Part shown: positions 19,437 through 40,956 of the stretch, one piece after another | Layout of the letters: each line of letters begins with the position of its first letter | How positions within the stretch are numbered: the stretch's first letter is position 1 | Source: an uncultured Mycoplasmatota bacterium | Lineage (GTDB): Bacteria; Bacillota_I; Bacilli_A; RF39; UBA660 | Reading direction: 5' to 3' | Assembly: GCA_947652325.1 (NCBI GenBank) | Contig: CANTCQ010000001.1 | Coordinates: 198,725 to 262,724, forward strand | DNA length: 64,000 nucleotides | Program-made: the position numbers and the translations under genes | The notes under the pieces: model-generated | What the model saw: the letters and a program-made list of their open reading frames with translations, nothing else | What the model was told of the DNA's origin: nothing | The model's database searches: none

Positions 19437-20143
19437 TATGTTACAATATATTTGTGATGTATAGTGAGTAAATTATCAAATGAATTATGAATACTACAAT
19501 ATTTAAGTACTCATAGGAAATATTCTTTACAAGAACTTACTGTAAAGTTAAAAGTTATAAAACGTATGATAAGAACTTATAGGGAATATTGAAAAATCAG
19601 GTATTTTTATCGATGCTATACATGGGCCCTATGGTGGATAATCTTACGTAATAATGCTTTTTTCCAAGTCCTGTTTTTACTTCTTCTGATTGTGAATTAT
19701 TAGAAAAACTAAATGCTTCAAATACAAAAGGACTTACAGATTTGATTTTCAAAATGAAATATTTTATTTCTTTATTTAACGAAGAGTGGCATACAGATAC
19801 TTCCATTTATATAATAGTAAGTCGAGCGATAAAAGAAAAAAGAAAAGCAATTTACTTAATTATATGGAAGATTTAGAACATGTCTTTCTTGTTCGTTTAC
19901 ATTTAATGTATAACCATATTTTAATTTTACAAAGTAACTTTACAGATAGTGGACCTGTTGATTGTGACTTATGGGGCCAAAGTTATTTTATTTGCTGTTA
20001 TTTTGAATTTATATATAGGGCATAATTGTGTGGTAAATGCATCTTTTTTTGAAGCATGTTTCAAAATGTTTATGTGTTAAACCATTAGGAAGCAATTGAC
20101 ATATATTAGAGTTACAAAAGTAGCTCTTTTTTACGCATTTTAC

Positions 20144-20174
20144 TTGACAGCGTGGGGGGGGGGTAAGTTATAAT
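20144..20174 (+). promoter_or_regulatory. promoter with a G10 tract in the spacer (TTGACA-19 nt-TATAAT)
   Basis: The -35 TTGACA is at 20144-20149, the G10 tract at 20154-20163 and the -10 TATAAT at 20169-20174, 27 nt upstream of the ATG at 20201. Confidence 0.7.
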
Positions 20175-20200: not shown

Positions 20201-21853
20201 ATGAATGATAAAGCTATAGAATTTGAAACTACTATTTATAAAGTAAAAAGCTCTTTAACTCGTTTAAAAAAAATAGGTTTACGTATAGAAAAATATGAGA
20301 GATTGGTAGATGAGGTTATAGAAACCTGCAACAAAGAAACTGATTATAATATGGAAAATGTTTTTGGAGCAGCTGAGAATTTTTCAGAAGGTATGTTAGC
20401 AAATAGTTACATAAAAGCAATAAGTAAATTGGAGAGCATATTTTTAGAATTAAGTAAGTATGAAATTTATTTAAAAGTTGCGGCTTTTAATCAAATATTA
20501 AAGGAATTTTTAAATTCTAAAAATAAAGAGAAGATAAAATTTATTGAATTAAAAGACCAATTAAGGGGTTTATTAAATGATTTAAAAAAATCAGGAACAT
20601 TGGATTATCAAGTAGAAGGGGCTTTAGTAGAAGATATTTATTTTTTTACTTATCAACTTATACAAGAAGAAATAAAATGTTTTGGAACGAGTTCACTTTT
20701 AAGTGCTTTGAAACAAGATGAGATTCATAAATACAATTTGGATAAACAAATTCGTAAAGAATTGGAAACGTTAAATTTGAAAAAAGAGAAATATTCTTTA
20801 TTGAAACTTCGAAAAAATGAAATAGATACTCAAGAAGGCCTTCATGCTACTTATTTAGAAGAATACTTTATTTTAAATTTAATGAAAGCGACCATGAGTG
20901 AGCAAGATAGACAAAATTTATTAGAAGAAATGGCCTATGAGATTACCTTTGCTTATAAACAAGCAAAAAATATTGAAAAGGATATAGATAAAAATCGAGA
21001 GAGTATAACTGAAAATAGTCAAAAAATTCAAAAGTATTTAAAAAAAATATACAAAAATATAGCTTTATTTGCCACTTCTGCAAGTATAACTGCAGGATTA
21101 ATTACAGGAAGTTTAACTTTAGGAAAAAAGTGGGCTTGTGAAAAAAAGTACAATGTGACAACTTATTCTTTTAGTTCTATAGATGGAGAATTGCCAATAA
21201 AGACAGAAAAGTCTTATTCTATTGAAAATACTATTCAATTATATGAATATAAACCTTTTAAAGAAGCAGATAGTTTTAATTATTATACGAGAACTGTAAA
21301 CACTTTTGATTTAAGTTCTTTAAAGGAAAGGAATTTAGAGGATTATCTAAACATAAATTTAGAAGCATTAAGAACTATAGTTGAAACAGGTTATGACTAT
21401 AAAGAGAATTTAAGTGTAAGTGATTTATACCAAGAAACACTTTTTATTGTAGAAAAAAAAGTAACAGATGAAGAAAATGTAGAAATAACGTACAATGCGT
21501 TTTCGCATGTTTTGATTTTTCTTGATTTTCTAATAATTGATGTTTTGATAGAATTAATACTGGCAGTGGGAATAGCAAAGATAGAAAATAGAAAATATTT
21601 AGAGTGGAATCTTCTTTCGTCTTTAAGAAAAATGATTGTTACATATAGAAAGATAATTGTCCAAAAGCAAAAAATAGCAAATACAGAAGAAGAACTTAAA
21701 AATTTAGATTTGGAAATGAAAAATTTATTTTTAGAAAATAGAGATTTGTTACAGAAAATACCAACTCTTCTTACTGTTTTTGAAGGGGAATCAAATTTTA
21801 GGGAAGAAGTGGAATCTATAAAAAAGAATTTATCTCGATTTCTTAAATTGTAA
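20201..21853 (+). CDS. hypothetical membrane protein with coiled-coil regions
   Basis: There are two hydrophobic segments (IALFATSASITAGLITGSLTLG and VLIFLDFLIIDVLIELILAVGIA), and the N- and C-terminal parts are coiled-coil-like. Confidence 0.5.
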   Translation: MNDKAIEFETTIYKVKSSLTRLKKIGLRIEKYERLVDEVIETCNKETDYNMENVFGAAENFSEGMLANSYIKAISKLESIFLELSKYEIYLKVAAFNQILKEFLNSKNKEKIKFIELKDQLRGLLNDLKKSGTLDYQVEGALVEDIYFFTYQLIQEEIKCFGTSSLLSALKQDEIHKYNLDKQIRKELETLNLKKEKYSLLKLRKNEIDTQEGLHATYLEEYFILNLMKATMSEQDRQNLLEEMAYEITFAYKQAKNIEKDIDKNRESITENSQKIQKYLKKIYKNIALFATSASITAGLITGSLTLGKKWACEKKYNVTTYSFSSIDGELPIKTEKSYSIENTIQLYEYKPFKEADSFNYYTRTVNTFDLSSLKERNLEDYLNINLEALRTIVETGYDYKENLSVSDLYQETLFIVEKKVTDEENVEITYNAFSHVLIFLDFLIIDVLIELILAVGIAKIENRKYLEWNLLSSLRKMIVTYRKIIVQKQKIANTEEELKNLDLEMKNLFLENRDLLQKIPTLLTVFEGESNFREEVESIKKNLSRFLKL

Positions 21854-25498: not shown

Positions 25499-26236
25499 AA
25501 AATTCTCCTTTCTTTCAATTTGCTATAAGTTATGGAAAAAGAAATAATTAGGGAGTTTATATTAATCATTTCTTATGAGGCAGTCTCTAATACTTTGAAC
25601 TTATTATAAACACGTTAAATATCTCTTTTTTCCGCTGCCAACTCATTGCATATTACATTATACACTATATTTTTATTATGTCAAATTGATAAGTATGTCT
25701 ATTTTTATGTTAATATATAAAAAAATAAGTATTAAAAAACTACCATATTTTTATAATGTATTATACTAAGAAAAGTTTTATAAAAAGGAAGGCAGTTGAT
25801 TTGTATATTCAAAGAGAACTTATTATATTTTTAGAAGAAACGGTACTTTAGGAACAAAAAAAGAATATATTTTGGATATCTTTTAGTTAAATTTTATTAA
25901 AAGCTTATATTGTTTTTCATTTGCTTCGTTCATCTAAAAATGATATTTTTCATATTCTTAATGGTGTATTGATTAAAATTTAAATTATCAAGAAAAGGTA
26001 ACTATATTAAAGCAATGTCTGTTTATGAAAAGCAAAGAAACTTATGATAAAGTAATTCAAATAGTAACTTTTTTTAGAGATTCTGCTTTCTTTGTTTTAA
26101 ATCAATATTTATGGTTGGAATAGGCTGAAAATTTAATTCATGGTTTAGAAACTATAAAATTTTTAAAAGAGTATATTCAAGAAGAAATGAAAACTTTTAT
26201 GGGACAAGAAGAAATAAATCGAACAAGAAAACTAAG

Positions 26237-28648: not shown

Positions 28649-31240
28649 TTATGTTCCGGAATTTGTTTGGTTGTTATTTCCACTATTTGTACCAGAGTTC
28701 GGAATGTTTGGTTTATTTGTATTACCGGTTTCATCATCAGGGTCAGTAGGAGTATCAGGATTTGTTATATTACTTAAATTTGCAGTAATGGTAAGTCCAT
28801 CACTCATATTACTTTTTAATATACTATAGCAAGCTTTGATAACAAATTTATAATTTTTAGCTTCAGTGGCAATATAGGTAAAACTGGTTTTGTCTGTATA
28901 TCCAAGACTAATTAAAGAGCCATCTTTATTTTCTAAATACACTTGGTAGCCGATAGAGCCTATATGGCTTGTATTATAAGCTATTCTTTCATTATAATAT
29001 TTTTCAGCAAAACTTGTATTTCCAAATTTATAGTTATCGTTAAAATAGGTTTGTAATTTAGTTGTATCAATTGCTTCAGGTGTTGATAGAGCATTCCATT
29101 TTAGAAGAATTTCAGTCCCTACGGTCGTTGCATTTCCATTTGTTGGAGTGGCTAGTTTATCGAATCTATTTGAGATGCTAGTTGGTTCTGTTCCCTGTTT
29201 AAATAGCTCGGTTTTCTTTAAATTATCTGGAGTATTAGCGCTGGCTAATTGCAAAGGAATTGTTCCAAATTCAATCGTTGCTTCTACAACACTACTTGGT
29301 TTTGTAAAACGAGCATTGGGTTTTAGTATTTTACTTGCAACAGCAACCATAATATCACGTCTTGCCCGACTTCCTTGCGAAGAAGTATTATATCCTTCTG
29401 TTAATTTATCGTATCCGTACCATAATGAAATAGAATAATCAGGAGTGTATACTGTATTCCAATGGTCAGGAGTTGCACTTGTTGGAATTTTTAATCTTCT
29501 AGCTTCTGCTTCTTCAATAGTTGTTGTCCCACCTTTTGCTGCAATATCTGTTCCATTTACGCGAATATTTCCACCAACACTTTTTCCACCTTGTACCAAA
29601 ATATTTGTAATCATATAAGCAGTTTCTTCACTCATAACTCGTGTTTTAGTGTATTTATAAGTGTATTCTTCTTCATTTTCTAAGTAAATAATTTTTGTAA
29701 AAGAGTAAGGTTCAATAAAATAACCCCCTCGACCAAATGCAGCATAAGCAGCACTTATTTCCAAAGGACTTGTTCCATCGAATCCTCCAATGGAAGCAGA
29801 TTCATAAAGATTTTCTCCAAAATCAATTCCTAAGTTATGAATAAATTCAATTTTTTTAGCTTCTTCTACTTGTTGGAAAGCTTGCAAGGCAGGAATATTT
29901 CGAGAATCAATTAGAGCATCTCGCATGGTAATTAATCCTACATGTTTTCCATCGTAATTTCTTATGGTTCCACCTGTTGTGTAAGTGTAAGGCTCATCAA
30001 TAAAAGTTGTTCCAGTAGAGGCATTGTTGTATTCAATTAAGGGACCATAATCAAAAATTGGTTTAGCAGTAGAACCAGGTTGCCTTTTAGTAAGAGCACG
30101 ATTGGTTCCTGTTTTTATGTAGTTTCTTCCAGGTGCAAGTCCAAGAATAGAGCCATCGACTGTTGAAGTAACTGCAATGCCGTTTTGAACTAATTCATCT
30201 TTAAATTTGTAAAGTTCTCCTTTTTCAAAAGAAGTTAAAACGTCTTGAATATTTCGGTCTAAAGTAGTAGTAATATCCATTGGAACGACACTTGGGTCCA
30301 TTCCCGTTTTTTCTTTTACTTCTGCTAAAACATATTCAATGAAAGGTTGAAGTCCCGAATTATCTGTTTTGCCATCATTTTTTGTATCTTTTAATAAAGA
30401 AGCAATCGGAATTTCTGCAGCATTTTTTGCTTCTTCTTCTGTAATGTATCCATGTCTTACCATTAAATCTAATACTACTTTTTGTCTCGATTTACAATTT
30501 TTAGGGTTTCTTATTGGGTGGAACCAAGCGGGGTTATTAAACATTCCAACCAAAATGGATGCTTCAGGTAAGGAAATATCGGAGATTGACTTTCCAAAAT
30601 AAGTTTGACTCGCTTGTTCGATTCCATAAACGCCATCATAATTTGTGCTTCCATACCCAAACCATTGTGAATTCACATAAAATTCAATTACTTCCTCTTT
30701 AGTATAAGCTTTTTCTATTTTAAAAACTGCCATATAAATGTCTGTAAATTTACGAATAATTCCTTTTATTCCTTTGGTTTCTTTTTCGCTATACGTGTTT
30801 TTTGCAATTTGCATGGTTAGGGTAGAAGCTCCTCCTGCATCATCTTGTCCCATGACTTGTTTTATACTTGCTTTTAAAAATCTAGCTGCATCTACACCGT
30901 TATGTTGAAAGAATCTTGCATCTTCTGTTGCTACTAAAGCATCAATAAATACTTGTGGTAAATCATTGTAGGTTACAAGTTCTCGATTTTCTGCACCGAC
31001 ACGCGTAATTTCTTCTCCATTTTTATCTCTTAAAATCGTGGCTTCTTTGTTATATAATTTCGTTGTATTAAAATCAGGAGCTGTTACGATAATATAAATT
31101 CCAAAAACCAAGACTGTAATTGCAGCAAGTATTCCTAAAAACATTAAAATGGTGAAGAAAATACTTCTTACTTTTCTTTTATCTTTTTTTTGCTTGGTTC
31201 CTTTCTTCTTTAATTTATTTACAATTTTTAATTTTGCCAT
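28649..31240 (-). CDS. ponA: class A penicillin-binding protein (transglycosylase/transpeptidase)
   Basis: An N-terminal TM anchor is present. The GT51 motif is EDARFFQHNGVD and the transpeptidase motif is GSTAKP (SxxK). The C-terminal tail is low-complexity and Asn/Thr/Gly-rich. Confidence 0.9.
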   Translation of the reverse strand: MAKLKIVNKLKKKGTKQKKDKRKVRSIFFTILMFLGILAAITVLVFGIYIIVTAPDFNTTKLYNKEATILRDKNGEEITRVGAENRELVTYNDLPQVFIDALVATEDARFFQHNGVDAARFLKASIKQVMGQDDAGGASTLTMQIAKNTYSEKETKGIKGIIRKFTDIYMAVFKIEKAYTKEEVIEFYVNSQWFGYGSTNYDGVYGIEQASQTYFGKSISDISLPEASILVGMFNNPAWFHPIRNPKNCKSRQKVVLDLMVRHGYITEEEAKNAAEIPIASLLKDTKNDGKTDNSGLQPFIEYVLAEVKEKTGMDPSVVPMDITTTLDRNIQDVLTSFEKGELYKFKDELVQNGIAVTSTVDGSILGLAPGRNYIKTGTNRALTKRQPGSTAKPIFDYGPLIEYNNASTGTTFIDEPYTYTTGGTIRNYDGKHVGLITMRDALIDSRNIPALQAFQQVEEAKKIEFIHNLGIDFGENLYESASIGGFDGTSPLEISAAYAAFGRGGYFIEPYSFTKIIYLENEEEYTYKYTKTRVMSEETAYMITNILVQGGKSVGGNIRVNGTDIAAKGGTTTIEEAEARRLKIPTSATPDHWNTVYTPDYSISLWYGYDKLTEGYNTSSQGSRARRDIMVAVASKILKPNARFTKPSSVVEATIEFGTIPLQLASANTPDNLKKTELFKQGTEPTSISNRFDKLATPTNGNATTVGTEILLKWNALSTPEAIDTTKLQTYFNDNYKFGNTSFAEKYYNERIAYNTSHIGSIGYQVYLENKDGSLISLGYTDKTSFTYIATEAKNYKFVIKACYSILKSNMSDGLTITANLSNITNPDTPTDPDDETGNTNKPNIPNSGTNSGNNNQTNSGT

Positions 31241-31806
31241 ATTAATTCCTCCTTATTAAAATATATTTCATCTACTATTTTCAAATAATCGAGTGTCGGA
31301 TTAAAACCGTATTTTATTTTATATCCATTTTTATTTATATATGCATATTCAATGCTTTTTCGAGCGTATTTTTCTATATAAGAAAGTAAATCTTCTCCAT
31401 TTAATAAATAAACATTTTCATTCATTTTGATAATTAGAAAAGCAATACCTTTGTGTTTGATGACTTTTTTTATGTGCTCTAGTTGATGTGGGTGAATATT
31501 CGCAAGTGGAAAAGAGGTTTTATTTTTGGTTACTTTGGCATCAAATTCAATATATTTGCCTTTATATAAACCGTTATAGTCTAGAGTAGATGGTTCTTTA
31601 AAAAAGGCACGTTCAATGACTTTTCCTTTCGGTGAGTAAGAAACTTTGGCTACTCCGATGGGGGTTGGTTTTTTAAAAATCAAAGCGATGTCTTTTTCTA
31701 GATAGTATGCATTTGAAGTATTTAAATCTTCTTCTAAATCCATTCCTCGGTTTTTATAACTTAGGGGTTTTTTGTATTCTTTTTCAATGTTATTTGGATA
31801 TTTCAC
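31228..31806 (-). CDS. recU: Holliday junction resolvase RecU
   Basis: YKNRGMDLEEDLN, TLDYNGLYKGKYIEFDAK and KTSFPLANIHPHQLEH align closely with Bacillus RecU. The gene overlaps ponA by 13 nt. Confidence 0.85.
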   Translation of the reverse strand: MKYPNNIEKEYKKPLSYKNRGMDLEEDLNTSNAYYLEKDIALIFKKPTPIGVAKVSYSPKGKVIERAFFKEPSTLDYNGLYKGKYIEFDAKVTKNKTSFPLANIHPHQLEHIKKVIKHKGIAFLIIKMNENVYLLNGEDLLSYIEKYARKSIEYAYINKNGYKIKYGFNPTLDYLKIVDEIYFNKEELIWQN

Positions 31807-31909
31807 ATTAAACCTCCTAAAAAGATTATACTATATTTTGTTTTTATTTACTATATAAGGAAAAAAACTTTACAAGGAAAGACAAGAAAAATTTTGTAGA
31901 AAAAAGTAC

Positions 31910-31948
31910 TTGACAGTGGTGGTGGTGGTGGGGGGGTTAAGTTACAAT
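31910..31948 (+). promoter_or_regulatory. promoter homologous to 20144-20174, with a (TGG)n repeat running into G7 in the spacer
   Basis: The -35 TTGACA is at 31910-31915. The sequence G(TGG)4TGGGGGGG spans 31916-31936. The -10 TACAAT is at 31943-31948, giving a 27-nt spacer. It shares TACTTGACAG..GGGG(T)TAAGTTA.AAT with the 20144 promoter. Confidence 0.6.
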
Positions 31949-31978
31949 ACCCTTTAATAAAAAGAGGGGGATTATTTT

Positions 31979-33382
31979 ATGAATTATAAAGTAGAAAATA
32001 AATTTTATGATAAAATAAAACAAAAGGTAGTAGATGGTATTTTTATAGAGGGAAAAAATTGTAGATTTAGTAGATTTGAACAGGATAAGAGTTTGCCTAA
32101 GCATTACGCTTATTTAATGCAATATAAGAATTTTAAATTTAAAGATGTACCAAAAGAAGCACAAACAAAAGAATTCTTTTTAAACATGTTTACGTATAGT
32201 GATGTTTTTAATTATATTAAAAGTCATATAAAAGAGTTTGATAGGCAATTTTTTAAAGATTTGATTACTACTAATCCGTTTGCCTTAACACTTGATAATA
32301 ATTGTTTTTCTATTATTCCAATTGAATATATTGATGAAGAAATGTGTTCTTTAGCTATTTTACAAAATAAAAATTGGTGCGACTATACGTGGTTTTATTT
32401 AGTTGTAGAAAGAAAACCACAAGTGTTAACAGAAGATTTATGGAAATTAGGAGCTCGGTTGTATGCAAGAGAAGTGAATGGTAAAAATAAATTTTTAAGT
32501 ATAACGCCTGAAAAGTATAAAGATTATGAATATTATTTAGAAATGTGTAGTTGTAATTTTAATGAAAATTGTCCATTGGATACTAATAAAGGTCATATTA
32601 TAGACACTATTCCTAAAGAAATTCTTTCTCTACGTTTTGTTTTAGATTTGTTAAAAATAGATATTCAAAGTGTTGCTAGGTTTAATGAGCAAATGCTAGA
32701 GATGAAAATTCCGTATTGTGAAGAAACTGAAAAAATATGGCAGTTTGTAGTACGACATGTTGGAGAGACAATACGGAATATAAAACTAAACGAAGAAAGA
32801 ATAGAATTCTTTTTAAGACATTATGCCAAAGATTCTCATGAATACATTTGGTGTTTTAAAAATAATTTTAAGAGATATTTAAAAAAGAAAAGAAATCTAG
32901 AAGCTCTAAAAAAGACAGAAGAAAGAACCCGAAATTTTTTGGAAAATACCTCAAAAATGGCTCTGAACGGTATTAATCAGAAACTAAAGCAAGGAGAAAA
33001 TCCAATAGATGCCATTAATGATACTAATCAATTGCTTAGGCCGTTTGAAAAATCGTATAGTATTTCACAATTACCCATCAAGTATGAAGGAGAAGTTCCT
33101 ATAGAATTTCGTAAACAATTAGATACAGAAGAGTATTTACAAATGTTTTATAAAAAAATCGGCGTTCAAATTATAGAAGAGGAGGATAATCTTTTTTATA
33201 GCGTAGTGGTGCCAGAAGGTTGGAGCGAAGAAAATGATGGGTGCTGGTGCTATGTAAAAGATGAAAATGGGAATCCTGTGATAGATTATGTTTATCAAAG
33301 CGTATTTTATGATAGAGATGCCTATGTAAAAAGGGTTTATTTATCAAAGTTAGAACAAGAAGAAAATCGAGGTCGAAAGTAA
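31979..33382 (+). CDS. hypothetical cytoplasmic protein with DUF4116-like helical repeats
   Basis: Segments of the type IP.E(Y/I)..EEMC..A(I/V).. recur. No signal peptide is present. The RBS is AGAGGGGG. Confidence 0.5.
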   Translation: MNYKVENKFYDKIKQKVVDGIFIEGKNCRFSRFEQDKSLPKHYAYLMQYKNFKFKDVPKEAQTKEFFLNMFTYSDVFNYIKSHIKEFDRQFFKDLITTNPFALTLDNNCFSIIPIEYIDEEMCSLAILQNKNWCDYTWFYLVVERKPQVLTEDLWKLGARLYAREVNGKNKFLSITPEKYKDYEYYLEMCSCNFNENCPLDTNKGHIIDTIPKEILSLRFVLDLLKIDIQSVARFNEQMLEMKIPYCEETEKIWQFVVRHVGETIRNIKLNEERIEFFLRHYAKDSHEYIWCFKNNFKRYLKKKRNLEALKKTEERTRNFLENTSKMALNGINQKLKQGENPIDAINDTNQLLRPFEKSYSISQLPIKYEGEVPIEFRKQLDTEEYLQMFYKKIGVQIIEEEDNLFYSVVVPEGWSEENDGCWCYVKDENGNPVIDYVYQSVFYDRDAYVKRVYLSKLEQEENRGRK

Positions 33383-33717
33383 TTTGAAAAATGCACAGTA
33401 TATTTGCGTATTTTTTGCCGTTTTGAACATATTTTGTCTTCTATTGTCGAAAGTCTTTTTCTTTTTTTTTGATTTAGTAAAATGGTACAAAAGGGTGATA
33501 TTTATGTTTCGATTAGAAATATTTTATAATGAAATGCTAGAAAAGATACAAAAAGCTGAACTTTTACTTACAAAGAAAAGTTTAATAAGTGAGAAGTATC
33601 CTTTATCTAAAAAAAGTATATGATATTGTAACAGCTTTTCTGATGAACGATTCTTTCTAGTCACTTGACAATATTGGCTATCCTTTATTATAATGGATAG
33701 GTAAGAAGGTGGTAACT

Positions 33718-34065
33718 ATGTATAATGAAAAGAATGAAAAAATATTATTAACTGCACAAGATATTTTTGAAAAAGATTTTAAAATTGATGCGAGAGGATA
33801 TCGTCCTCAAGAAGTTGATAAATTTTTAGATATGATTATTGCCGATTATACTGAATTTAGTGCCATTATAAAAAGACAGGAAAAAGAAATACAATCATTA
33901 ACAAGTGACAATGTGAAGTTGAAACAAGAATATAGTAAACTTCGGAGTCGTTTGGATGCTGCTAGTGATGAAGGAAGTAGTACTAGTAAAAATTCTGTTA
34001 ATAATGTGGACCTTTTAAGAAGAATTAGTCAGTTAGAAAAGGTTGTTTTTGGAAGAAATGAATAA
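33718..34065 (+). CDS. gpsB: cell-cycle protein GpsB (DivIVA domain)
   Basis: LTAQDIFEKDFKIDARGYRPQEVDKFLDMIIADY closely matches the Bacillus GpsB N-terminus. It is followed by rnpB, as in Bacillus. Confidence 0.85.
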   Translation: MYNEKNEKILLTAQDIFEKDFKIDARGYRPQEVDKFLDMIIADYTEFSAIIKRQEKEIQSLTSDNVKLKQEYSKLRSRLDAASDEGSSTSKNSVNNVDLLRRISQLEKVVFGRNE

Positions 34066-34067
34066 TT

Positions 34068-34405
34068 TGTAGGCAAATGCTGCATTATTTTTATGTAGAG
34101 GAAAGTCCATGCTCACACAGTCTGTGATGATTGTAGTGTTCGTGCTTAGGGAAAAAATAACCTAAGGAAAGTTTATCTTTACGGCGAAGAAATTACCTTT
34201 TAACTGGTAAAAGTATTTATAAAGTGCCAAAGAGACGAGTTCTTTTGGAAACGAAAGAAGTGGAACGCGGTAAACCCCACGAGTGAGAAACCCAAATTTT
34301 GGTAGGGGAGCTTTTGCTAGGAATTAGAACGATGCAAAAGACCATTTATGGTAGATAAATATTTGCCACACTCTAGTAGTGTACAGAACATGGCTTATTC
34401 AGGTT
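34068..34405 (+). ncRNA. rnpB: RNase P RNA (bacterial type B)
   Basis: The universal GAGGAAAGTCCATGCTC (P4 5' strand) and ACAGAACATGGCTTA (P4 3' strand) are present, as is CGCGGTAAACCCCACGAGTGAGAAACCC. The ends are approximate. Confidence 0.85.
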
Positions 34406-38524: not shown

Positions 38525-40956
38525 ATGGAAGAAAAGAAAAATTTCCCAACTAGAAAAAGTGTGGGGGGGGGATATTAGATAAAAAGTCCCTAAATAGTCT
38601 AGAAAAGAAAATATTTTTAATTATAAGTATTTTATGTTTTTCAATATTAATAGTAGGAATAACATATGCGTATATAGCATATTATACAAATCAAAAAGGA
38701 ATCAATGTGTTAGAAACAGATTGTGTACATATAGATATGGAAGATTTAAGTGAAGGAATAAGTCTAAGAAATGCTTACCCCTTAACAGATGAACAAGGAT
38801 ATAATACAAAACCATATCGATTTCGTATAACAAATACATGTAATATAGGAGTAGATTATAATGTAAATATAGAAGTATTTGATATAGCAAATAGAATGTC
38901 TAGTAAAAATGTAGCAGCAAAAGTAGACGAGTTTGAAAAGAAAATATTGACAAGTGAAATAAGTACAACTCCTACTTATACTGGAGATGAAGGAACATCA
39001 ATAGAGAGTTATAATGTATATACAAATACACTTTCACCAGGAGAAAGTAAAAGTCATGATATAAGAATATGGTTAGATGAGAGTGCAGGAAATGATTCTC
39101 AAAATAAAGAATTTAAAAGTAAAATAGTAATAGAAGCAATACAAAATCAAATAGCGCAGATGACATTTAGTGAATATATTATAGACCAAAGCAAGTCACA
39201 AGATAGAGGAATAGAGAGAATAGAACATGAAGCAACAGAACAAATTCCGGCTTTAACGGATTATAGATATACAGGAGCAAATCCAAATAATTATGTATAT
39301 TTTGGATGTAGTGAAAATTGTACAGAAGAGAATCTATATCGAATTATAGGAGTAATACCAACACAAAGTAGCGAAAATGGAGCATATGAAAACCGTGTAA
39401 AGTTAATCAAAGCAAGTGAATATATTGGCCCTAATGCTGAGGATGGTTCAAGATTTACTCCAAGTGGAAAAGGATATAAATGGAATGCAGATGGAAATAA
39501 TAAATGGGAAGAAAGTACATTAAAAGAAGAGTTAAACACAGAATACTGGAATAGTTTAGAAGAATATCAAAAATATATAGAACCTTCAAAATGGTATTTA
39601 GGGTCTCCACTTGGTGAGAAACAATCAACATATACTTCTGAACAATTTTATAAAGAAGAGCGAAGCAAAACGCCAGGATATAGTCAGGGAGCAATATCCT
39701 ATATAGATAATATAGGATTAATGTACCCAAGTGATTATGGCTATTCACTAGAAAAAAAATATAGAGAACCATCTATTTATGAAAACGAATTACATTATAG
39801 GAGTCAAGCATGGCTATATAATATGGAAGAAAAATATTATGAATGGACAATAACTCCAGAAAATACAAGTCAGGATTTTGTAAAAGTGTGGGTAGTCGAT
39901 AAACAAGGAAGAATAGATTATTATCGAGCTTATTATGATAATTATTTATTTATTGCCCGACCAACCTTTTATTTAAAGAGTAGTATAATGTATGGGGGAG
40001 GATTAGGTACAAAAGAAGAACCATTTCAAATAATAGAAAATTCCAATCGAATGAGTGATTATATAATAGCAAAAAGTACAACCGATGAGACAATAGAAAA
40101 AGTGAGTCATGAAGCAACAGAACAAACTCCGACTTTAACGGATTATAGATATACAGGAGCAAATCCAAATAATTATGTATGTTTTGGCTATGAAGGAGAA
40201 AGATGTCCAGATGAAAATTTATATCGAATTATAGGAGTAATACCAACGCAAAGTAGCGAAAATGGAGCATATGAAAATCGTGTAAAGTTAATCAAAACAA
40301 GTAATTATGTAGAAAATGAGAGTGGTTATTTAGAAAATAGTATTGGTCCTGCTACTCCAGAAGGAACAGGTTATCGTTGGAATAAAGATGCTAATATTAA
40401 TAATTGGGAAGAGAGTTCATTGAATACTAAAGTTTTAAATAATATATATTGGAACTCTTTAGGAGAATATCAAAAATATATAGAATCATCAAAATGGTAT
40501 TTAGGTTCATTAAACAATGATATGTATGAATTATATACAGTAGGAAATTTATATAATGTAGAAAGAAGCAATGTTTCTTCTTATAGTGGTGGAGCAACAT
40601 TCTACATAAGTAATATTGGTTTAATGTATCCAAGTGATTATGGATATTCCATATCAAAAGAATATTGGAATAATAATAGTATAAGTAATTATCAAAATGA
40701 ATATATAAAAAATGCATGGTTATATAATTTAAGTGGTGGAGAATACGTAGAATGGTTGATTTCTGCTTCACATGATTTTCCAAATGGCAGTGTTTCTGCA
40801 TGGAATATTGGATATACTGGAAATATTTGGGGAGGTTTTAGTGTAATTTATTTTGCTCAAGTGTATGCAATACGTCCTACCTTTTATTTGAAATCTAGTG
40901 TATTATTTCGAGGAGGAGAAGGAACAATAGATAATCCTTATTATTTATCAATATGA
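38525..40956 (+). CDS. phase-variable surface-anchored protein with two tandem modules of about 294 aa, currently frameshifted at a G9 tract
   Basis: The ATG at 38525 follows a GGAGGA RBS. With G9 the reading frame stops at 38576-38578. One extra G joins it to the long ORF (track entry 38707-40956), which is open back to 38572 and encodes the signal anchor KKIFLIISILCFSILIVGITYAYIAYY. Confidence 0.7.
38563..38571 (+). repeat. homopolymeric G9 tract inside the 5' coding region
   Basis: The nine G residues were counted directly from the sequence. Confidence 0.95.
39226..39420 (+). repeat. near-identical internal direct repeat, copy 1 (partner at 40108-40300)
   Basis: CATGAAGCAACAGAACAAA.TCCG.CTTTAACGGATTATAGATATACAGGAGCAAATCCAAATAATTATGTAT and TATATCGAATTATAGGAGTAATACCAAC.CAAAGTAGCGAAAATGGAGCATATGAAAA.CGTGTAAAGTTAATCAAA are shared with copy 2, 882 nt downstream. 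Confidence 0.85.
40108..40300 (+). repeat. near-identical internal direct repeat, copy 2
   Basis: See copy 1 at 39226-39420. Confidence 0.85.

Follow-up and report, generated by a model that had tools for sequence, protein, structure and literature searches.

A compound TGG and poly-G repeat places the hexamers of a promoter beyond the usual working distance in an uncultured Mycoplasmatota bacterium

The promoter preceding a 467-aa open reading frame of an uncultured Mycoplasmatota bacterium carries two different repeats between its -35 and -10 hexamers, and raises the question of whether it is a phase-variable switch and, if so, whether it is ever ON. RNA polymerase of the sigma-70/sigmaA type spans a spacer of 16-18 bp, with about 17 bp needed, and in the window (the whole 64-kb stretch of DNA analysed here) the hexamers TTGACA and TACAAT are read 27 nt apart. 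Simple-sequence contingency loci are textbook material in Neisseria, Haemophilus, Campylobacter, Treponema and the mycoplasmas; to our knowledge, few have been described in uncultured low-GC gut Firmicutes. Here, we present evidence that the locus belongs to a known kind, the poly-G spacer switch, and that what is new is a compound TGG and G tract extended beyond working length.

The elements of the promoter and its gene are the following.
31907-31916, + strand: upstream box TACTTGACAG, including the consensus -35 hexamer TTGACA (31910-31915) and the G at 31916 (sequence, motif search)
31917-31928, + strand: (TGG)4 trinucleotide repeat within the promoter spacer, (TGG)5 in a second lineage (TRF, assemblies)
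31929, + strand: single T joining (TGG)4 to G7 (sequence)
31930-31936, + strand: poly-G tract, G7 in the window and G8, G9 or G10 in the other lineage (sequence, assemblies)
31937-31942 and 31943-31948, + strand: shared downstream box, TTAAGT and the -10 hexamer TACAAT (sequence, motif search)
31950-31971, + strand: short leader with a CCCTTT/AGAGGG hairpin overlapping the RBS GAGGGGGA at 31964-31971 (sequence)
31979-33382, + strand: 467-aa ORF with its ATG at 31979 (translation)

A first-pass annotation of the window had read the spacer as G(TGG)4TGGGGGGG, a trinucleotide combined with a homopolymer, and the sequence bears this out; TRF calls a GTG/TGG array at 31916-31931. A slippage-prone repeat therefore lies between recognisable -35 and -10 hexamers, the arrangement characteristic of SSR promoter-spacer phase variation. 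With n TGG units and m Gs, the spacer length is 8+3n+m, and a spacer of 16-18 nt requires 3n+m to be 8-10. The tract is also the top-scoring one of the window by G4Hunter (1.8 per 25 nt; 2.1 for the tract alone). Its order GG-T-GG-T-GG-T-GG-T-G7 satisfies the sequence definition of a promoter G-quadruplex element (at least four G-runs, short loops, G4Hunter at least 1.5), as a predicted potential only.

Two further loci of the window, one of them another promoter, carry long poly-G tracts.
20141-20174, + strand: sister promoter TTACTTGACAG-CGT-G10-TAAGT-TATAAT, with a spacer of 19 nt in the window (sequence, assemblies)
38525-38577, + strand: beginning of an ORF for a surface protein, with a G9 tract inside the gene at 38563-38571 (sequence, assemblies)

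The promoters at 31910 and 20144 have a common core consisting of ACTTGACAG, a G-tract and TAAGTTAYAATA. The pattern TTGACA-N10-35-TAAGTTAYAAT matches twice in the window and never in 100 dinucleotide-preserving shuffles, which upholds the first-pass assignment of both to one promoter family. The TACTTGACAG box is the same in the 20144 promoter and differs by one base, upstream of ACTTGACAG, in the orthologue of that promoter from a sister species. This orthologue, CACTTGACAGTC-G10-TTAAGTTATAAT, precedes a gene for a 73%-identical protein in the MAG MGBC128534, an uncultured Bacilli bacterium whose DNA is ~82% identical to the window. Three G or C runs of at least 7 (G10, G9 and G7) occur in the window, against 0.17-0.35 expected at its GC content of 27%, and all three are runs of G on the + strand, at 20154 (G10), 38563 (G9) and 31930 (G7).

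The 20144 promoter precedes a gene for a 550-aa membrane protein (20201-21853). Its tract varies in length among five assemblies: G10 in the window (19 nt), G9 in two assemblies (18 nt) and G8 in two (17 nt), so that the alleles seen span 17-19 nt and include ON-length spacings of 16-18 nt. The tract at 38563 is coding. With G9 the frame ends at a TAG, and with G10, the allele of L127 and L128, it encodes an 810-aa surface protein that is anchored in the membrane at its N-terminus and contains duplicated domains. This coding G9/G10 switch leads us to conclude that the organism uses poly-G tracts as contingency loci. The 20144 and 38563 loci are each at most one step from an ON state. The wider regulon of such promoters that the first-pass annotation had envisaged did not emerge: the window holds two, and a scan of species-representative genome contigs for TTGACA-N8-38-GGKTAAGTTAYAAT, in which the sister species appeared and the window's own species did not, returned 85 loci, of which 84 are ordinary promoters without a G-tract and one, the 20144 orthologue, has the tract.

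We surveyed the alleles of the 31910 tract by searching for the 467-aa protein and the neighbouring RecU in public assemblies. The survey covered 11 independent near-clonal metagenome assemblies, four from ENA and seven from Logan (SRA), although the ENA samples and the SRA runs may derive from just two studies or cohorts. Consensus contigs report the majority allele of each sample. The window matches one ENA contig (ERZ14499418 NODE_18, 279 kb) at 100% identity and probably derives from it. The alleles fall into four classes.
(TGG)4+G7, spacer 27 nt: ERZ14499418, ERZ14425201, ERZ14425196, ERZ14650952
(TGG)5+G8, spacer 31 nt: SRR26138806, SRR25706400, SRR25706250
(TGG)5+G9, spacer 32 nt: SRR25706393, SRR26138733
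(TGG)5+G10, spacer 33 nt: SRR26138763, SRR25706372

Both repeats are accordingly prone to slippage, as had been predicted, and the observed values of 3n+m are 19 and 23-25. A spacer of 16-19 nt was found at 31910 in none of the 11 assemblies. Over 18 kb the assemblies are at least 99.9% identical, with identical flanks on either side of the tract, and the (TGG)5 lineage differs from the window at three places: the 31910 tract, a cluster at 32007-32010 and the G-tract at 38563. The cluster replaces ATGA with CCTT, four substituted bases that give Y10S and D11F; the other changes within the 467-aa gene across the assemblies are P100T and one synonymous substitution. Since the (TGG)5 lineage otherwise differs at a single 4-nt cluster, the repeats are by far the most mutable positions of the 18 kb compared. 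The two repeats change at different rates. The TGG count differs only between the lineages (4 versus 5), the behaviour of a repeat that changes slowly instead of toggling often, whereas the G count varies inside the (TGG)5 lineage. Four samples share an unchanging G7 while their G9-10 tracts at 20144 and 38563 vary, the pattern expected under length-dependent slippage.

Some Illumina chemistries are prone to misread runs of G, and the survey rests on consensus contigs, so that the length differences could in principle have arisen in sequencing or assembly, given how G-rich and low in complexity the stretch is. We regard this as most improbable. A change of one TGG unit is not a homopolymer error, and it co-segregates perfectly with the substitution at 32007-32010; G7 recurs in all four ENA assemblies, and two or three runs support each of G8, G9 and G10. 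Every tract is, moreover, shorter than the assembly k-mer.

The same survey bears on the first-pass proposal that the promoter is either locked off or a multi-state switch. The locked-off part fits alleles of 27-33 nt that include no ON length. A switch that cycles through many states, with ON alleles (3n+m = 8-10) present as frequent minorities or in particular niches and with TGG and G serving as coarse and fine steps, would be in keeping with variation in both repeats and with an ORF that is unbroken in every assembly. Two more contigs (SRR25706239, SRR25706344) start in the 31910 tract or 3 nt after it, and breaks of this kind are suggestive, and only suggestive, of heterogeneity within those samples; minority subpopulations with ON-length spacers may lie beneath the majority alleles. 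None of the 11 majority alleles, however, lies within 9 bp of the functional window, compared with all five for the sister promoter, and the TGG number is fixed inside each lineage and so rarely changes. We consider such a cycling switch unlikely, and the multi-state part of the proposal was not supported.

Could any of the observed alleles nevertheless be transcribed? With the hexamers 27-33 nt apart, no observed allele fits the spacing of a sigma-70/sigmaA-type polymerase. No allele has a -35-like hexamer 16-19 nt upstream of TACAAT, the best being TGGTGG with two of six matches, and a promoter scan of the sequence before the 467-aa gene gave no match with 16-18-nt spacing. Judged by spacing rules established in other bacteria, the promoter is most likely silent in every sampled population. 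No assembly has a disrupted 467-aa ORF, which would not be expected of a gene long silent, but the near-clonality of the strains leaves too little variation for a test of selection on it.

Transcription might instead start farther upstream, leaving the tract in a 5' UTR of ~140 nt where it would act at the RNA level or be irrelevant. Read-through from recU is impossible because recU is divergent. The sole other candidate promoter, TTCACA(31802)-19-TATACT(31827), matches the consensus at five of six positions in each hexamer, and the scan also gives TTCACA-16-GATTAT. The former is weak, its 19-nt spacing is poor, and it overlaps the recU start codon and RBS, so that it would be conserved for other reasons; consensus matches in the scan are in any case no commoner than in shuffles (9 observed, 11.6 expected). 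An alternative canonical promoter was rejected on these grounds. A known RNA element in the intergenic region was likewise rejected, as an Rfam search of that region gave no match even at E<=1. An upstream start thus appears very unlikely.

A second route to expression would be initiation at the -10 region without a -35, with the G-tract acting only on its strength, whether rheostat-like or by adopting a non-B structure (a two-tetrad G-quadruplex of the non-template strand, for example). TACAAT matches the -10 consensus at five of six positions, TAAGT-TAYAAT is conserved between both promoters and the tract is the one that heads the G4Hunter ranking; together with the G at -14, TACAAT might support weak -35-independent initiation. 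Position -15, however, is A rather than T, so that the extended -10 motif TGn is incomplete, and quadruplex formation is purely predicted. Homologues of the gene, moreover, retain a -35 at 16-17 nt, implying that the -35 matters for this gene. On balance, we think -35-independent firing improbable.

The promoters of the homologues also bear on the origin of the repeat. Five of the closer homologues (49-54% identity) have TTGAC(A/T) and TA(T/C/G)AAT separated by 16 or 17 nt, with no repeat and with a short leader followed by a GGGGGA RBS. This RBS is common to the homologues and the window gene, and the hairpin over it is absent in the homologues. Since the homologues carry canonical, repeat-free promoters, TTGACA and TACAAT are the ancestral hexamers of the gene's promoter type, with the repeat a lineage-specific filling of the spacer between them. 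The window allele without all but one of its TGG units would have a spacer of 18 nt, and the TGG array was probably seeded by a single G-to-T interruption of a poly-G tract (GTGGTGGG...).

What, then, does the promoter serve? As the first-pass annotation had stated, the product has the properties of a cytoplasmic repeat protein: it has no signal peptide or transmembrane segment (maximum KD19 1.3), and an AlphaFold2 model built with 62 sequences (pLDDT 92, pTM 0.85) predicts helical repeats at residues ~40-300, long helices at 287-353 and a C-terminal beta domain at 362-453. Searches of Pfam (E<=0.1), NCBIfam and PADLOC assigned the protein to no family, and PHROGs gave a single marginal coiled-coil match. 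Some 116 relatives were found, nearly all of them lacking a name and encoded in gut metagenomes or in MAGs labelled 'Bacilli bacterium'. A fold search of the PDB returned no match below E=0.2, and the best matches in BFVD were DUF4116 proteins, at E ~4e-3 and TM 0.2-0.5, which is weak; the DUF4116 Pfam HMM matches neither the 467-aa protein nor any of the 62 family members. The protein is thus predicted to be a soluble, cytoplasmic helical-repeat protein of an uncharacterised family.

The genomic position of the gene, between recU and gpsB, is as first annotated.
31228-31806, - strand: recU, neighbour of the 467-aa gene
31866-31876, + strand: conserved block AACTTTACAAG (comparison with the loci of a relative)
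33709-34065: gpsB-like gene with a DivIVA domain, neighbour of the 467-aa gene

YpsA (DUF1273, SLOG, ~180 aa) is the usual neighbour of recU and gpsB in Bacillus, and the 467-aa gene had been taken to stand in its place. The protein is far from YpsA in length, has no Pfam match at E<=0.1 and has a predicted fold of helical repeats plus a beta domain; the position looks instead like a variable slot, in which two relatives carry an IS-like ORF and an unrelated 452-aa gene. In the relative with 84%-identical RecU, all contigs stop 104-264 nt from recU, before gpsB, so that no orthologous spacer was recovered from this sister species, and the ORF at these contig ends looks like the N-terminus of a transposase. 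The relative whose RecU is 76% identical retains the gene order recU - X - small ORF - gpsB, in which X is the 452-aa gene, unrelated to the 467-aa protein (BLASTP E=0.058). Its promoter is TTTACA-17-CATAAT, the -35 of which (TTTACA) is provided by AACTTTACAAG in the loci L142-L144 of this relative; no -10 was found after AACTTTACAAG in the window. The 452-aa gene is whole in L143 and broken by a nonsense mutation and an A7-to-A6 frameshift in L142; the gene call for L144 yields the same two fragments. The 467-aa family itself is non-syntenic, with recU or gpsB near none of 24 metagenome loci and none of three homologue loci with flanks. Conserved synteny pointing to a role in cell division was rejected, since the contexts of homologues are unrelated and the relative of the same order carries an unrelated gene. 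Given an IS-like ORF in one and a broken 452-aa gene in the other of the two relatives whose slot content was examined, the slot appears to hold dispensable accessory genes that are frequently inactivated, which would fit a silenced promoter in the window.

These observations are brought together, with modest confidence on our part, in a contingency promoter governed by SSR spacer length whose tract has outgrown the working range, which would be inactive in every population sampled, and whose poly-G part drifts neutrally. In promoters of this type poly-G between the -35 and -10 sets the spacing, and 31910 shares its core with the working switch at 20144. The tract would then have gained a TGG repeat, probably through the G-to-T interruption described above, and the spacer would have grown to 27-33 bp, that is, 9-16 bp past the 16-18 bp that a sigmaA-type polymerase spans. 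The poly-G part would continue to slip with no effect on output. Reactivation would require the loss of at least three TGG units in the window lineage or of at least 13 bp in the other, and because such a return needs several successive slippage events, the promoter would be in a deep-OFF state, effectively locked on ecological time-scales. Three parts of this scheme are inferred: that the promoter is silent, how the TGG repeat arose, and why selection might favour deep-OFF alleles, if it does.

A more speculative reading, to which we give little credence, would assign a function to the length itself. The tract may be a two-speed mutational device, in which a fast poly-G vernier and a slow TGG ratchet give a tunable return time from deep-OFF. 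Alternatively, GGTGGTGGTGG may be extruded as a two-tetrad quadruplex or slipped structure that cuts the effective spacer (27 minus ~10, or ~17), making long alleles conditionally ON. We know of no description of a switching rate or a conditional promoter geometry encoded in a spacer.

The expanded-spacer reading places the locus beside several well-studied switches. In Mycoplasma hyorhinis vlp, a poly-A tract in the promoter spacer gives ON, reduced and OFF states. The same three states are described for a TA-repeat in the promoter spacer of Haemophilus influenzae hifA/hifB (van Ham 1993, listed in PMC11868660). Both systems resemble 31910 in having a multi-nucleotide or homopolymer repeat in the promoter spacer; they shift by single units around an optimum, whereas 31910 mixes two unit sizes and has no allele near the optimum. 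In Treponema pallidum tp0126 and Neisseria meningitidis porA, the stretch separating the two hexamers contains poly-G, and 17 nt is the optimal spacing (PMC7864442). As in these promoters, a poly-G tract between the hexamers sets the spacing at 31910, and the 20144 promoter, with its 17-19-nt spacers, behaves as they do. Unlike porA and tp0126, the 31910 tract is a compound of (TGG)n and Gm that is 9-16 bp overlong in every allele seen, its host is an uncultured low-GC Gram-positive gut bacterium, and its product is cytoplasmic rather than an outer-membrane antigen.

In Mycoplasma gallisepticum vlhA a trinucleotide repeat, (GAA)n, is likewise associated with a promoter, and since 12 is the one number of repeats considered active, most alleles are OFF (PMC6258824). 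This offers a precedent for trinucleotide control with one permissive number. The vlhA genes form a large surface-lipoprotein family, and their GAA repeat stands beyond the core promoter, ~40 nt before the start site, whereas the TGG repeat of 31910 lies inside the spacer of a single gene for a cytoplasmic protein, and 31910 is not a switch of the vlhA type. Homopolymer length near a promoter tunes several output levels in the T-tract 'rheostat' of Helicobacter pylori sabA and the poly-G of Moraxella uspA1, where the tracts stand outside the -35/-10 spacer and act via DNA geometry or UP-like contacts. The 31910 tract lies inside the spacer, and graded output is a feature of sabA and uspA1.

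The 64-kb window contains two promoters and one coding sequence with a variable poly-G tract. Public metagenome assemblies alone sufficed to show that almost nothing but these loci separates the near-clonal populations. The promoter at 31910 offers a natural example of a spacer switch that a second, slower repeat has taken far past its working range, and it bears on how contingency loci come to be parked or lost; the depth of the OFF state could set the waiting time for reactivation. For the uncharacterised cytoplasmic family, which has more than 100 members and a confident orphan fold, the locus marks the protein as conditionally dispensable in its host.

Two poly-G tracts in the window, one between promoter boxes and the other within a coding sequence, occur as alleles of different length:

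20141-20174: G-tract of the 20144 promoter, lying between its -35 and -10 boxes (sister-species counterpart, locus L045 6079-6109)
38525-40957: open reading frame with an internal poly-G switch (start ATG 38525; G9 at 38563-38571)

In five assemblies, the tract of the 20144 promoter is G8, G9 or G10, giving spacers of 17-19, and MAG MGBC128534, from the sister species, retains it as G10. From these lengths and this retention we infer that the promoter is a working spacer switch on the 550-aa two-TM protein encoded downstream. At the intragenic tract, the frame opened by ATG 38525 in the G9 allele ends at a TAG at ~38575. In the G10 allele, found in L127 and L128, the frame stays open for 810 aa. 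The resulting protein carries a membrane anchor at its N-terminus and contains two domains that are internally duplicated; the duplicated 264-nt segments, near 39169-39425 and 40054-40308, are about 86% identical. The gene callers annotated only a 749-aa downstream portion of this reading frame.

The site between recU and gpsB, occupied in the window by the gene for the cytoplasmic 467-aa protein, varies in content among relatives. In the closest relative (L138-L141) an IS/transposase-like ORF adjoins recU, and all contigs break there. A second relative (L142-L144) carries an unrelated gene of 452 aa, which is intact in L143; in L142 a premature stop codon and a frameshift (A7 to A6) disrupt it, and gene calling in L144 yields the same two pieces. 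Two further features flank gpsB:

33504-33623: 39-aa ORF (MFRLEIFYNEMLEKIQKAELLLTKKSLISEKYPLSKKSI), shortly before gpsB
34065-34401: RNase P RNA class B (283.7 bits), directly after gpsB

The 39-aa ORF may encode a conserved small protein, as L143 has a 42-aa counterpart (MVRVDKLFNEMIEKVKECSLLLEKKSLN...) at the equivalent position. The order gpsB then RNase P RNA is also that of B. subtilis.

Distant homologues of the 467-aa protein (L104-L113, L117-L120; e.g. L105 3745-3856) share a conserved 5' leader, AGGAC...TAGCCC...GGAGGGC...GTCCTCC...AAGGAGGAC-ATG, which is absent from the window's copy. Its GTCCTCC has two possible pairing partners, the RBS or the upstream GGAGG, and the leader looks like a three-part anti-anti-SD/anti-SD/SD switch. 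These leaders had zero matches in Rfam, and RNAalifold supported the anti-SD:SD helix as the sole helix, with no compensatory changes. Some species carry tandem paralogue pairs of this family (L107-L110).

Over 18 kb, the sole non-repeat difference separating the (TGG)4 and (TGG)5 lineages of the promoter at 31910 is a 4-nt cluster within the 467-aa gene, ATGA to CCTT at 32007-32010, giving Y10S and D11F. Individual samples add two single changes in this gene (P100T at 32276 and a synonymous change at 32755), and the covered flanks outside it hold single changes at 25965, 26704 and 28031. In these small numbers, the substitution pattern in the 467-aa gene is compatible with relaxed constraint.
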